From Escherichia phage ECO111 5-P, in sequence record OR844767: a DNA stretch of 59,207 nucleotides; one strand, 5' to 3'. Both the position numbers and the translations under genes were made by a program. Shown here in pieces: positions 6,759-11,392 of the stretch (position 1 is the first letter of the stretch; the number at the start of each line of letters is the position of its first letter). Below the pieces are notes generated by a model. That model searched no databases. It worked only from the letters and a program-made list of their open reading frames with translations, and was not told the DNA's origin.

Positions 6759-6968
6759 GCCGCATACCAACGCACGCCGCGTATATCATGCAGCACCATA
6801 GCGGGCCGCCATACGGCATAGCGCACATATAAGGCCGCATTGATGCACGTCGTGTATATCAGGAGGGAAGAAAGCAGGACGGGCCGCCGTACGCACGCCG
6901 CGTATATCAACTACAACGGCACACCATAGGCCAGATACACGGCACCGCAACGCACGCCGCGTATATCA
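6759..6968. repeat. degenerate direct-repeat array, core ACGCACGCCGCGTATATCA (3 exact copies and 1 variant)
   Basis: exact copies at 6771-6788, 6893-6910, 6951-6968; variant GCACGTCGTGTATATCA at 6845-6861; each preceded by a GCCGC(A/C) element; same 19-bp core as the spacer of the minus-strand promoters at 8964-8993 and 11363-11392. Confidence 0.6.
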
Positions 6969-6975
6969 GAAAGGC

Positions 6976-7003
6976 AATAAAAAAGCCGCCCGGACAGGCG
7001 GCC
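6976..7003 (-). terminator. intrinsic terminator ending the minus-strand accessory operon
   Basis: hairpin GCCGCC-cggaca-GGCGGC at 6985-7002 with plus-strand A-run 6976-6984 (U-run on the minus transcript); downstream of gene 7073..7345. Confidence 0.5.
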
Positions 7004-7072
7004 TTTGATACATGGGGAATGTGTCAAAACAGGTTAAAAGGGATCGTGCGGCGTTCCCCGAAAATCCGTGAT

Positions 7073-7345
7073 TCAGATAAACGATTTTAACAGCACGTTA
7101 AGCATCGCATTCACGCGTACAGTGGCAACGGAAAGACGTGCGGCCCCGTCCATTTTGTACAGCGTCACACGGAAAGCGCGCGCCCGGTCATCCCACGTTA
7201 GATCCGCATCTGCCCGGATAAAAGTCACGCCATCCGCATGACGTTTAAAACCTTTTGCCCGTGCGATCCCGGCATACCGATCCGCCGCCATACGTGCAGC
7301 CGTTAAGCGTTGCGCCTTATCCATTGTGGGCCGCCTTGCGGTCAT
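7073..7345 (-). CDS. hypothetical protein
   Basis: 90-aa ORF, ATG at 7345; last gene of the minus-strand accessory operon. Confidence 0.45.
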   Translation of the reverse strand: MTARRPTMDKAQRLTAARMAADRYAGIARAKGFKRHADGVTFIRADADLTWDDRARAFRVTLYKMDGAARLSVATVRVNAMLNVLLKSFI

Positions 7346-7473
7346 TATTCACCGCCTCTTGATATACGTTTATAACGAGCGTATCCCGCCAGCCAGCCGC
7401 GATGGTACGCAATTGGATAAACGATGGCGCACATACTCACGCCAGCGATAAAGCCGCAAATAAATTCGTACAT
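7345..7473 (-). CDS. small hydrophobic protein (42 aa), hypothetical
   Basis: hand-translated MYEFICGFIAGVSMCAIVYPIAYHRGWLAGYARYKRISRGGE; ATG 7473 with GAGGTG RBS; exactly fills the gap between flanking genes with overlapping stop/start; below the track size cutoff. Confidence 0.3.
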   Translation of the reverse strand: MYEFICGFIAGVSMCAIVYPIAYHRGWLAGYARYKRISRGGE

Positions 7474-7695
7474 TTAACGCACCTCGTCGCCTCTTTTCTT
7501 GCCCCCTTCTACCGCCTCGCCACGGTCACAACGCGCGGAATACAGACCAATGCGGCCCGGATACGCCGCCACTGACGCGCGGCAATCGTCAAACGAGATC
7601 CCCGCGTCAATAACATAATCATGACAATCCGCCGCCATATTATCAGCGCCAACCGCGCCGCATATCGTCACAACGAAAAACCATAATCCCGCCAT
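7474..7695 (-). CDS. small putative secreted Cys-containing protein
   Basis: 73 aa; ATG 7695 with G-rich RBS; N-terminal hydrophobic signal-like segment MAGLWFFVVTICGAVGA; four Cys; ends ...GDEVR. Confidence 0.45.
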   Translation of the reverse strand: MAGLWFFVVTICGAVGADNMAADCHDYVIDAGISFDDCRASVAAYPGRIGLYSARCDRGEAVEGGKKRGDEVR

Positions 7696-7747
7696 AATTA
7701 CCGCCCCCGATCCAGATTAATGACATTAATACCCATTATGATGATCC

Positions 7748-8902
7748 TTATTTGATGAATTCGATTGATTTGATCTGCGACGTCGTGACGGCTTGCGCGT
7801 AAGTCTTATTTTCCAGCAAATCAAGGCGCATTAACCACGCGGAGCAAAACAGGCCGCTATCTGAAAAAATCACGTCTTCGGTTTTAGCGATCAACGTCAT
7901 TCCCGCAACGGTTTTAATCTTGATGCGGGTCGCCGTCTTGTCATTGTTGAGCGTGGCGGCCCCGGTCGCGGCATACGTCGCGCGGGCTTGCTTGATGTAT
8001 TGTTTCATGCAGCCGACGCGCACAACGTCGCGGACGTGTTCAACCGTGTTGACGTCGCGATCCAGTTCAATGACGGTATGAAATGCGCCATCAATGCAGC
8101 AGGACACGACAACGCGCACACGGAAAAGCTGATATTCTGCCGGGCTAATACGTGTCGTTATTTCGTAAAATTCGCCGTCGATTTTGTCGCGCAAGGTATG
8201 CAGCACGATCCCCGATGCGTTAACGTTTCCACGCTCAACGGCGGCGCAAGCGCGATCGACATAGTCGGCCGGGGCGGTCACATAGCCCGCTTTCACTTGC
8301 TTGATGAAATCGCTTTCCGGGTCATCCTTGCGGGCCTGTTCAAACGGCACATATTCGATCGGCGTGTCGTAAAGACTAACCATGTGAATATCAGGGCGCG
8401 CGTTGTAGATCTCCGCGTCTTCAAGGTCTAACATCCAGTAACCGCGCTTTAAATACACATATCCCCCCGCCGGATTGGTTGAGCGTAAAACATGATCAAC
8501 CGCGTCGGCGTTGGCGCTTGCCGCGTTTGATTCTGCATTCATCGCGATGATCTCCGCTTCGATTTCAGCGCGGGTAAAGTCGGAAAGGTTGAGGATGAAA
8601 TCATCTTCGAATCCGTGAACCTCAAAGAAAATCGCATCATTGCGGAGCTTTTGAGCGCGTGCGGCGGCTTCCTGTTCTGCGATTTCGTCGGCGGTTTTCA
8701 GTGTGCCGGAATGATCAAGCGCGCTTTCTAACACGTTTTCGAAATTGCTTTCGTATGACCACGCCCGCCAGATTAATGACCCGCCGTCCACCTCGCGGAT
8801 CTCGACTTGCGTCGAACCATATTTATCAAAGTTGTAAGACACGGCGCGATCGGCCTTGATGTTATATTTTCCAACCATTGCAACGATTTGATCGTGAGTC
8901 AT
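7748..8902 (-). CDS. hypothetical protein (384 aa)
   Basis: long ORF, ATG 8902; directly downstream of promoter element 8964-8993; no recognisable motif. Confidence 0.55.
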   Translation of the reverse strand: MTHDQIVAMVGKYNIKADRAVSYNFDKYGSTQVEIREVDGGSLIWRAWSYESNFENVLESALDHSGTLKTADEIAEQEAAARAQKLRNDAIFFEVHGFEDDFILNLSDFTRAEIEAEIIAMNAESNAASANADAVDHVLRSTNPAGGYVYLKRGYWMLDLEDAEIYNARPDIHMVSLYDTPIEYVPFEQARKDDPESDFIKQVKAGYVTAPADYVDRACAAVERGNVNASGIVLHTLRDKIDGEFYEITTRISPAEYQLFRVRVVVSCCIDGAFHTVIELDRDVNTVEHVRDVVRVGCMKQYIKQARATYAATGAATLNNDKTATRIKIKTVAGMTLIAKTEDVIFSDSGLFCSAWLMRLDLLENKTYAQAVTTSQIKSIEFIK

Positions 8903-8963
8903 TTTTATGTACCTGTTTTGATAACCGTTGGCCCCATTGCCCCCGGCCCCCGAAGGGAATTTA

Positions 8964-9794: not shown

Positions 9795-9804
9795 TGTGAT
9801 CCCC

Positions 9805-10008
9805 TTATTCGGTTGAGCGGTTAGCAGGCCCGGCGCTCCATTTCGACCCGGCGCGATGTGCTACGATTTCGACGCTATAGCCGCAATTCAGGCGGCGGCT
9901 TACTTCCTTGTAACCGTGGCGCGTGGCGTAATTTTTCGCGCCCTTTTCCGTGGTTGACGTGTCGCAATGCGTACCGTTTGACATGATAACGCCATACATA
10001 TGACCCAT
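9805..10008 (-). CDS. hypothetical small protein
   Basis: 67 aa; ATG 10008 with GGGGG RBS. Confidence 0.35.
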   Translation of the reverse strand: MGHMYGVIMSNGTHCDTSTTEKGAKNYATRHGYKEVSRRLNCGYSVEIVAHRAGSKWSAGPANRSTE

Positions 10009-10019
10009 AGATCCCCCTG

Positions 10020-10643
10020 TTAGTTATAAATATCGCCGTTTTCAAAAAATTCCGGCTTGTCACCGTTTTCCAGTTCATCCCTTAAATATTCGTCACTTTC
10101 GCGGCTTTCCAGTTCGTCGAGCATATCCGAACAATAGCCGTCAATAGCTTCGCGTATCAGTTCCGCGATCGTGCGGTTATCCGGCTTTTTCAGGAAGTCA
10201 CGAAAAGGCTTCAATAACGATTCGTCATAGCATACGCCTGTATACGGGCAATCATCTGACGCGTTGAACACCCCGCTAACCCATTTAATGAAGGACGCCT
10301 TTTTATTAAAACCGTGGTCATTGACTTCCCGGTATTCTCGATAAACGCGGCGACGCATATTAAACGCATTGACATTATTAATGATCCACTTGTACGCACG
10401 CACGCCGGATAAATCTTCCACATCTGAACTATGATTGAGTTCGTAGCGAACATCGCAACCGCCCAGACCGTATGACCAGTCGCGCACCTCGACGCATAGA
10501 TCATCACAAAATGCACGAAGGCTTTCTTTGTATTCTGAAAAGTCGAATTGATCGCCGCTCTTATATTGGCGGTAATTTTCGATCGCTTTCGCTTTCGCGA
10601 CGTCTGACAGTTCATTAAAAGTATAAAGTGAAATAGTACGCAT
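10020..10643 (-). CDS. hypothetical acidic protein (207 aa)
   Basis: ATG 10643 with AAGGGG RBS; Cys/Asp/Glu-rich; no confident family assignment. Confidence 0.5.
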   Translation of the reverse strand: MRTISLYTFNELSDVAKAKAIENYRQYKSGDQFDFSEYKESLRAFCDDLCVEVRDWSYGLGGCDVRYELNHSSDVEDLSGVRAYKWIINNVNAFNMRRRVYREYREVNDHGFNKKASFIKWVSGVFNASDDCPYTGVCYDESLLKPFRDFLKKPDNRTIAELIREAIDGYCSDMLDELESRESDEYLRDELENGDKPEFFENGDIYN

Positions 10644-10645
10644 GG

Positions 10646-10846
10646 TTAAGCCCCTTGTAACAGAAGAGTGAAAAAATTATTTGAACAGCCGATCAAACGG
10701 CCCGTTTTACGCTCGCGTAAATAAAACGTTTTGCGCCCGAAAGAATAACGGCGCTCAACCTTACAGCGACGCCATACCGCCCGCGCGTCACGATATATAA
10801 CAGCCGCAATTATTGAGTAACCGATCAAGATAATAGCCATTAACAT
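10646..10846 (-). CDS. small membrane protein, hypothetical
   Basis: 66 aa; ATG 10846 with GGGGG RBS; N-terminal transmembrane-like MLMAIILIGYSIIAAVIY. Confidence 0.4.
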   Translation of the reverse strand: MLMAIILIGYSIIAAVIYRDARAVWRRCKVERRYSFGRKTFYLRERKTGRLIGCSNNFFTLLLQGA

Positions 10847-10864
10847 GACGCGCCCCCGGATTAA

Positions 10865-11299
10865 TTAGATTTCAAAGATAAACCAGCCGATAGTTTCGCC
10901 ACGGCGGCGACCTTTGGCGATATACTCACGCTCGATATTCAGGCCGATTAATTCCGCGATACGCAAAACACAATCCAGGCCGCACGCGCCATCGATATAA
11001 ATGCGATCATCCTTCTCATGGTAACGCATACCGTACAAGGAATCCGGATTGTTAGCGGGATAGGGTGCGCCGTCTATCGGGAATACATGAGAGGCGCGAT
11101 CCTTAATAGTCAAAAGGCGCTGCTGGTAATTAGCACATAGCCATTCTGCAAACACGGTGCCAACCATATCATACCCGCCGCCCATACATTTAAAACGCTC
11201 CCCCTTGTTTCGGTCATCCAGGCGGCAAATATTATATCCGTACGTTTCGCGCCCTTTTGAAGTAGACCAGGACAAAGAAAGATGATTGATAGTTTTCAT
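10865..11299 (-). CDS. hypothetical protein (144 aa)
   Basis: ATG 11299 with GAGGCG RBS; first gene downstream of promoter element 11363-11392. Confidence 0.5.
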   Translation of the reverse strand: MKTINHLSLSWSTSKGRETYGYNICRLDDRNKGERFKCMGGGYDMVGTVFAEWLCANYQQRLLTIKDRASHVFPIDGAPYPANNPDSLYGMRYHEKDDRIYIDGACGLDCVLRIAELIGLNIEREYIAKGRRRGETIGWFIFEI

Positions 11300-11362
11300 A
11301 ATGTATCGCCTCGTTTCGTTTTATTGTGTGGGCGGTTTCGCCCCCGCCCCGAAGGGAATTTA

Positions 11363-11392
11363 ATAATAGATGATATACGCGGCGTGCGTCAA
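11363..11392 (-). promoter_or_regulatory. sigma70-like promoter with embedded operator (minus-strand class, copy 2)
   Basis: minus strand TTGACG (11392..11387), 18-bp spacer, TATTAT (11368..11363); 46-bp identity with 8948-8993. Confidence 0.5.

Follow-up and report, generated by a model that had tools for sequence, protein, structure and literature searches.

The analyzed window, a stretch of 59,207 nucleotides (nt) of Escherichia phage ECO111 5-P (record OR844767), contains a circularly permuted Chi-like (Chivirus) genome in reverse orientation, in which we distinguished a 21-bp imperfect dyad that recurs in the promoters of the right arm and, without any promoter, in a cluster close to the chromosome end. 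The orientation of the genome was deduced from the published 12-nt cohesive-end sequence of Chi-type phages (PMC4342425, PMC5374247), GGTGCGCAGAGC, which has a single occurrence in the window, on the minus strand (cosN, 6521-6532), and from the linear records of relatives, whose end point is exactly this cosN. The right chromosome end runs from 6533 onward, and the left end, with gp02, the primase gene and gp04, from 6520 downward; the array of promoter-less sites is therefore placed 235-493 bp inside the right chromosome end. It is located between the last terminator of the right arm and cos, in a 0.5-kb non-coding right end. A megablast search with positions 6000-12000 matched 124 phage records, nearly all of Chivirus.

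Two promoter modules, P8993 (8948-8993) and P11392 (11347-11392), both on the minus strand, share 46 of 46 nucleotides, as reported in a preliminary description of this DNA, and the identity ends exactly at both borders. Each has the structure TTGACG-CACGCCGCGTATATCATC-TATTAT-TAAATT-CCCTTCGGGG, i.e., the predicted minus-strand promoter has an 18-bp spacer and matches 10 of 12 hexamer positions, in agreement with the hexamers and spacing of sigma70 promoters. Both are also placed as such promoters should be, in front of a gene block in the same orientation, with leader and ribosome-binding site (P8993 55 nt upstream of the ATG at 8902, and P11392 57 nt upstream of the ATG at 11299), and the minus-strand blocks downstream encode, as had been suggested, products without known function. 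Within P8993 we distinguished a -35 hexamer (8993-8988), the putative operator discussed below (8992-8972), a -10 hexamer (8969-8964), which in relatives is variable yet -10-like (TATATT, TACATT or TATTAT), and a 5' GC hairpin starting at about 8957. P8993 is predicted to drive the minus-strand genes 7748-8902, 7474-7695 and 7073-7345, and P11392 those from 10865-11299 down to 9028-9300. The predicted 5' leaders of the modules contain GC-rich stems (-14 to -17 kcal/mol); the CCC-UUCG-GGG hairpin proposed for them is present in the sequence, but the predicted leader of P11392 prefers a stronger neighboring stem, GGGCGG...CCGCCC.

The 19-bp core of these promoters, ACGCACGCCGCGTATATCA, recurs in the array as had been noticed, although the coordinates first assigned to the array copies (6771, 6893, 6951 and, for a variant, 6845) were 1-2 bases too high. 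Exact copies are found at 6770, 6891 and 6950 on the plus strand and at 8972 and 11371 on the minus strand, and a variant with three mismatches at 6843 (plus strand), which gives six matches versus 0.00 expected from 100 dinucleotide shuffles. In divergent relatives the 19-mer matched both strands with an offset of 2, which revealed the dyad TGAYRYAC-N5-GTRYRTCA, composed of 8-bp arms and a 5-bp center and containing most of the core; as a duplex the site reads TGACGCACGCCGCGTATATCA. The array copies do lie in the orientation opposite to that of the promoters, but since the site is imperfectly palindromic this orientation has little meaning. A -10 hexamer is absent from all four copies. The reported lack of a -35 element holds for copies 1, 3 and 4 (CAACGC, GTACGC and CAACGC, respectively, in place of TTGACG) but not for copy 2, which has TTGATG.

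The dyad pattern gave 13 hits in the window (0.49 expected), 12 of which are in non-coding regulatory DNA: the two minus-strand promoters, four plus-strand promoters, the four array copies, 7006-7026 and 5988-6008. The remaining hit, at 23017, is the only one within a coding region in 59 kb and is probably due to chance. The plus-strand promoters are P11988 (11988-12016; TTGACA-17-TATTGT, element TGACATAC GTCGC GTGTAGAA), P15303 (15303-15331; TTGACG-17-TAATAT, element TGACGTAC GTCGC GTGTACGA), P18565 (18565-18593; TTGACA-17-TAATAT, element TGACATAC GCGAC ATGTGTAA) and P20595 (20595-20624; TTGACA-18-TATATT, element TGACACAC GTCGC GTGTATAA). In all six right-arm promoters the element starts at the second base of the -35 hexamer, so that its left arm forms the TGAC of this hexamer, it spans about -34 to -14, and its register relative to -35 and -10 is constant, as would be the case for an operator. 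The replication/late promoters at 2577 and 2667 are devoid of the element, both here and in the five other lineages examined. The minus-strand pair had been regarded as a second promoter class. This view has to be abandoned, because the same dyad occupies the same position in the four plus-strand promoters; the dyad being common to all six, the promoters form one family, in which the near-identical pair is a sub-variant.

Five promoter-less sites, all read on the plus strand, constitute the terminal cluster: (i) site 1 (6768-6788; CAACGCAC GCCGC GTATATCA), invariant in 12 Chi-group genomes save for a T to C change at one position; (ii) site 2, the variant copy (6841-6861; TGATGCAC GTCGT GTATATCA), which surpasses the other array copies in dyad symmetry (6/8 Watson-Crick pairs); (iii) site 3 (6889-6909; GTACGCAC GCCGC GTATATCA); (iv) site 4 (6948-6968; CAACGCAC GCCGC GTATATCA), which directly adjoins the terminator; and (v) site 5 (7006-7026; TGATACAT GGGGA ATGTGTCA), a 7/8 dyad absent from the preliminary description. 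The first four, i.e., the array copies, start 235, 308, 356 and 415 bp from cosN. The intrinsic terminator of the right-arm minus-strand operon (6979-7003, minus strand; GCCGCC-N6-GGCGGC followed by a T-run) is kept in Serratia phage Smarc5, and its pattern, scanned against IMG/VR, was found at 4 loci only. Site 5 is flanked by this terminator and by the stop codon at which the last right-arm gene ends; the Chi group has retained it, and the Providencia phages have GGGAA-centered counterparts. One more promoter-less element (5988-6008, minus strand; GAACATAC GCGAC GTGTATCA) is found to the left of cos, where it precedes the gp02 ATG by 17-37 nt, and is specific to this gp02 allele. A bridging of the two ends across cos by flanking sites was considered and rejected, as no sites to the left of cos were found outside this allele and Cronobacter phage JC01.

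The centers of the dyads vary (GCCGC, GTCGC, GCGAC, GTCGT and GGGGA), while the arm positions stay conserved. Arm symmetry has a mean of 4.5/8 versus a background of 2.0, with only 3/8 in the array copies of the Chi group, and purine/pyrimidine symmetry amounts to 6-8/8 overall (7-8/8 in 10 of 12 sites); in phage JC01 the arms score 7-8/8 by pattern, with Watson-Crick pairing of at most 7/8 by inspection. RNA folds of the core (-3 to -5 kcal/mol; z from -0.7 to +1.3) are no better than those of shuffled sequences, and site 5 is the only site whose RNA folds better than its shuffles. This argues that the core is a site in duplex DNA, and its interpretation as an RNA or single-stranded DNA hairpin was rejected.

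The promoter element and the terminal cluster co-occur in six lineages, i.e., five named genera of Casjensviridae and the unclassified Serratia phage Smarc5. When promoter-like terminal sites were counted on both strands (a palindromic site can thus match twice), their observed numbers, compared with shuffled sequences, were 9 versus 0.14 in Chi, 5 versus 0.17 in Smarc5, 4 versus 0.01 in PibeRecoleta, 8 versus 0.20 in Redjac, 6 versus 0.10 in JC01 and 3 versus 0.06 in Klebsiella phage KPN N98, a significant enrichment in every lineage. The sites lie about 235, 310-333, 356, 415 and 474 bp from cosN in Chi, Smarc5 and the Providencia phages, 280-361 bp in JC01 and 284-420 bp in KPN N98, and these distances are similar across genera although the intervening sequence is not alignable. 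The position at the chromosome end next to cos, which had escaped earlier notice, is the most conserved positional feature of the array.

Among the 12 Chi-group genomes the terminal 0.5 kb is approximately 90% conserved and the array cores are almost invariant, with the TG of the -35 and the entire -10 consistently missing. In phages FSL SP-030 and ZCSE8 the sequence TATATCA is replaced by TATACCA in all four array copies, and of the four minus-strand promoters of the two phages only one has this change; the identical substitution in every copy points to concerted evolution (copy-to-copy homogenization) within the array. In KPN N98 the promoters and the three terminal sites alike carry TTGCAYAC-N5-GTRTGCAA, and in JC01 at least six promoters and three terminal sites carry TGACACAC-N5-GTGTATCA. 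The Chi-type element is found in phages of Salmonella, E. coli (Utah) and Klebsiella aerogenes (Phraden), while other versions are present in E21 (E. coli) and KPN N98 (K. pneumoniae). The element type thus tracks the phage lineage and not the host genus, which suggests a phage-encoded binder.

Considering the observed sites, their placement, statistics, conservation and co-variation, we interpret the 21-bp sites, with moderate confidence, as operators through which a dimeric regulator encoded by the phage would control the right-arm promoters, accompanied by an auxiliary operator cluster beside cos. The earlier suggestion that the array provides operator or decoy sites for the factor controlling these promoters is the best reading, given the confinement of the motif to regulatory DNA, its conserved arms and variable centers, and the array-promoter co-variation across genera. 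The protein binding, the repression and the role of the cluster are predictions made from the sequence. The predicted regulon would cover the whole right arm, the region of accessory, recombination and methylase genes. As the left arm forms the TGAC of the -35, a phage dimer bound at -34 to -14 would compete with sigma region 4, occlude the -35 and shut the right-arm promoters off. The terminal cluster, with its 4-5 promoter-less copies, would serve as an auxiliary operator bank for the same protein, raising its local occupancy, and could act by cooperative or looping repression of P8993 and P11392, 2.0 and 4.4 kb away, or alternatively by buffering or titration of the regulator.

Such an arrangement resembles the operators of phage lambda (looping between OR and OL) and of lac (O1-O2-O3), where dyad-type sites also cover the -35 and spacer of strong sigma70 promoters, several sites belong to one regulon, and an extra cluster of sites located kilobases away could loop. 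In the Chi-like phages, in contrast, the extra sites are promoter-less and located at the chromosome end next to cos, and the site is 21 bp long, with 8-bp arms, a 5-bp center and poor palindromy in the Chi group. Chi phage, moreover, is described as lytic (PMC4342425), and a repressor gene was sought in searches of the early proteins, where none was found. The stoperators of cluster A mycobacteriophages (L5 and Bxb1; PMC9283540, PMC6550527) likewise combine a repressor site in an early promoter with many promoter-less ones, and their sequence co-evolves with the phage lineage. They are, however, asymmetric 13-14-bp sites, bound by a monomer, that stop elongation and are dispersed over transcribed intergenic regions, with a single orientation with respect to transcription, whereas the Chi extra sites are clustered in the terminal region beyond the terminator; instead of many asymmetric sites inside transcription units, the window has one coding-region hit (23017) in 59 kb. 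Site banks located away from the regulated promoters, with the same site as these promoters, are also represented by datA of E. coli and by incA of P1, a titration locus, while the OB sites of KorB of IncP plasmids are promoter-proximal and promoter-distal palindromes of one global regulon. All these serve the control of replication or partition via a known protein (DnaA, RepA and KorB/ParB, respectively), and neither such a protein nor such a function is evident in Chi. None of the compared systems, including the two considered below, matches the Chi element in all defining features.

The PeSL cassettes of T4-type phages (PMC2839356, PMC4122927) are repeated, near-identical sigma70 modules with a GC-rich stem-loop in front of variable genes of unknown function, and they often have a GC-rich palindrome between -35 and -10 (PMC2839356). 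The 46-bp modules share with them the strong early promoter and the stable stem-loop repeated in variable regions. In this light the array copies could be passive relics of mobile promoter-plus-hairpin cassettes, decayed or gene-converted and without a binding function; the palindrome between the PeSL hexamers, the identical 46-bp modules flanking mosaic gene blocks that differ among relatives, the 19/19 match of array copies to the minus-strand promoters independently of their flanks, and the homogenization observed in SP-030 and ZCSE8 are all compatible with such an origin. In the more distant Escherichia phage E21, moreover, three promoter-plus-hairpin modules (at 14739, 16501 and 17978) are identical or nearly so over at least 45 bp. 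The relic explanation is nevertheless distinctly unlikely: the clusters are kept at one place in six lineages while their flanks diverge past alignment, the array follows the lineage-specific arm change of KPN N98, and the cores remain near-invariant although the TG of the -35 and the whole -10 are always missing. PeSLs are, furthermore, without a promoter-less cluster at the chromosome end, and since the Chi core folds no better than shuffled sequence, it lacks the stable stem-loop by which a PeSL is defined, which removes this explanation for the core itself.

The location of the cluster also raises the question of DNA packaging. Its sites could belong to the cos machinery, as binding sites of the small terminase subunit (TerS) or an accessory factor (an extended cosB/cosQ), as a roadblock for the motor before the terminal cos cut, or as a mark or protection of the first-injected end. 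The cluster is indeed always found in the last 0.5 kb before cosN, its site positions are similar in several genera despite non-alignable intervening sequence, and the terminal region is non-coding in every lineage compared. The R-sites of lambda cosB, bound by gpNu1, are likewise repeated protein-binding sites in non-coding DNA beside cosN, but they are located within approximately 170 bp of cosN and nowhere else, whereas the Chi sites start at 235 bp and are present again, at a fixed register for which a terminase site would have no reason, in six promoters as distant as 14 kb from cos. TerS (53845-54414, minus strand), with 79% identity between Chi and KPN N98 and 60% between Chi and JC01, does not track the element either. 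The 190 bp adjoining cosN (6533-6720), which comprise AAAAGGTACTT, an inverted repeat CCCGG...CCGGG and GCGTGGCGTGG, are the most conserved non-coding stretch across genera and lack the element, which makes them the more likely terminase site; they are probably the true terminase recognition region. A packaging role as the explanation of the cluster is therefore considered unlikely.

The constant position beside cos may still leave room for a packaging or end-protection role of the auxiliary operators. In a more speculative extension, to which we assign a low probability, the cluster would couple the early-gene regulator to the chromosome end, the accumulated regulator forming a nucleoprotein block that serves DNA handling and not transcription. 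Such a block might slow the packaging motor, so that terminase recognizes and cuts the downstream cos, or might shield cos or the first-injected end. The annotation of phage Utah treats an open reading frame spanning cos (6383-6637, minus strand) as a gene that becomes complete when the cohesive ends are joined (Utah_01). It is probably non-coding, because relatives carry frameshifting 1-nt indels and the automatic annotations of circular records leave it uncalled, and for the same reasons it is a doubtful target of the array.

As an alternative to operator or decoy sites, the array had been proposed to consist of origin iterons. It would then be a replication origin or a part of one, bound by an initiator that autoregulates the promoters, as in P1 and iteron plasmids. 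Four to five repeated sites of 19-21 bp in non-coding DNA, with the same motif in promoters, do recall iteron-mediated autoregulation, but the fit is poor. The array has 57% G+C and the neighboring 6533-6767 region 54%, neither an AT-rich unwinding element nor a DnaA box was found in the sequence, and the spacing is irregular (73, 48, 59 and 58 bp, i.e., 6.95, 4.57, 5.62 and 5.52 helical turns). There is also no initiator gene adjoining the array, and the six promoters drive accessory and recombination genes instead of the replication module. With better origin candidates elsewhere in the window (6029-6290 and 11400-12028), we regard an iteron function as highly improbable.

The first of these regions, situated between cos and gp02/primase, is non-coding DNA of 41% G+C with seven GGTTACAAG/CTTGTAACC repeats in both orientations, and repeats of this family occupy the equivalent place in Utah, KPN N98 (TTACAAG) and SAP012 (GTTAC); the region may be an origin of replication or bind terminase. 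The second, a candidate for another origin-like or regulatory region, comprises 4-5 copies of an approximately 29-bp repeat (11695-11937; core CTTACTTGAAAAA), also present in KPN N98, and a DnaA-box-like TTATCCACC (11781-11789) within the 640-bp intergenic region from which P11392 and P11988 diverge.

Only two proteins with a recognizable helix-turn-helix (HTH) motif were identified as possible binders, gp02 and gp04. The former (5645-5971, minus strand) is a 108-aa XRE-type protein (HTH_37, phrog_18318) encoded in a mosaic slot, and it was excluded as the general binder, as its allele occurs in only 20 records and the slot of Utah encodes an unrelated HTH protein although the sites are identical. 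In close relatives this slot next to cos accommodates at least three HTH proteins, of 108 aa here, 95 aa in Utah (614-901) and 107 aa in BPS4 (4534-4857); the Utah protein is unrelated to gp02 by BLASTP, while that of BPS4 was judged different from its upstream DNA only. Each allele has its own upstream region, and the promoter-type element accompanies only the allele present here. The second candidate, gp04 (2737-3018, plus strand), is a 93-aa putative XRE-like HTH regulator; its gene precedes that of the primase (3015-5597, plus strand) and is present throughout the group (140 records). Its AlphaFold model was poor (pLDDT 64) and gave only weak hits to XRE-like folds, no PDB sequence was hit, and a protein database search returned two proteins, too few for a useful alignment. 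gp04 is disfavored as the binder, since Chi and KPN N98, with different arms, share 52% in this protein, and Chi and JC01, with the same arms, 36%. Its recognition helix is most divergent in JC01, and its own promoter region is devoid of the site.

A whole-genome screen for proteins that Chi and JC01 have kept alike and that diverge in KPN N98 yielded tail-fiber and lysis proteins only. Pfam and PHROG searches with approximately 30 early proteins detected no DNA-binding domain beyond gp02 and gp04, and PDB sequences gave no match to the profiles of two small early proteins of universal occurrence. This outcome would also suit a host transcription factor or nucleoid protein exploited by the phage, the more so as all hosts are Enterobacterales, which could share a conserved factor, and the arms are similar in Chi, Smarc5, the Providencia phages, SAP012 and JC01 despite their different hosts. 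The element follows the phage lineage and not the host, however, and no E. coli or Salmonella factor is known to have a consensus matching TGAYRYAC-N5-GTRYRTCA; a host factor is thus very unlikely.

Several points weigh against the proposal of a phage-encoded dimeric regulator. No binder emerged from the HTH, domain, profile and whole-genome screens, and the searched literature contained no transcriptome, other transcription data or binding data for any Chi-like phage, nor a description of the motif in these phages. The array copies of the Chi group are exact copies of promoter sequence and poor palindromes (3/8), and common descent with gene conversion could therefore explain part of the similarity. 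Finally, the three right-arm promoters of E21 have another spacer in common, CCTGAAAGCGGTAGYAT, and a terminal cluster was looked for but not detected, which indicates that the architecture has its limits within the family. A single related promoter-less copy is present in E21 at 7553-7575, in the divergent region between the gp04 homologue and primase.

Other regulatory features were found along the genome. A terminator-like hairpin with a T-run (ATCCCCGAAGGCAACAACGGGGATTTTT; 20625-20652), covering approximately +1 to +30 of P20595, may be an attenuator, and the other right-arm promoters have GC-rich 5' stem-loops at the start as well. Two leader motifs, CCGTCAACACGACA shortly after promoter 2577 (2515-2545) and CACGCGCAC...CGCGAGG in the gp04 5' leader (2700-2730), are shared by all genera examined and may be regulatory sites of the replication/late promoters. 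In the region 5500-12200 no known RNA family was detected save for one sub-threshold chance match, and the whole window is devoid of tRNA genes. The replication and recombination proteins encoded at 3015-5597, 369-1709, 2094-2495 and 12029-12430 end in acidic C-terminal tails (WDDEV, DDDDEV, EEDDV and DDDEV), which recall the polymerase-binding acidic tails of T7 gp2.5 and gp4. Regarding the databases, the deposited SAP012 record (NC_053008) contains an Illumina adapter, AGATCGGAAGAGC..., directly after cos (7826-7850), an assembly artefact in RefSeq, and Chi-like contigs filed as Enterococcus, Listeria and Staphylococcus phages (e.g., OR844948, OR847083 and GU169904) are probably mislabeled or contaminated.

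Chi-like phages (Casjensviridae) have been isolated widely and serve as therapeutic candidates directed at the flagellum, and there was no prior account of the timing of their gene expression. Our analysis gives a concrete, family-wide regulon map, with one putative operator common to all right-arm promoters and absent from the replication/late promoters, and a 21-bp duplex that can be used as bait for the regulator protein. For the engineering of these phages, the six promoter modules offer compact, strong parts that are probably co-regulated. The conserved promoter-less operator cluster beside cos is an unusual architecture, amenable to simple deletions: if only auxiliary, it would be a tidy new example of a known principle, and if linked to cos function, it would represent a new type of packaging or end-protection element, a cos accessory common to the whole family.

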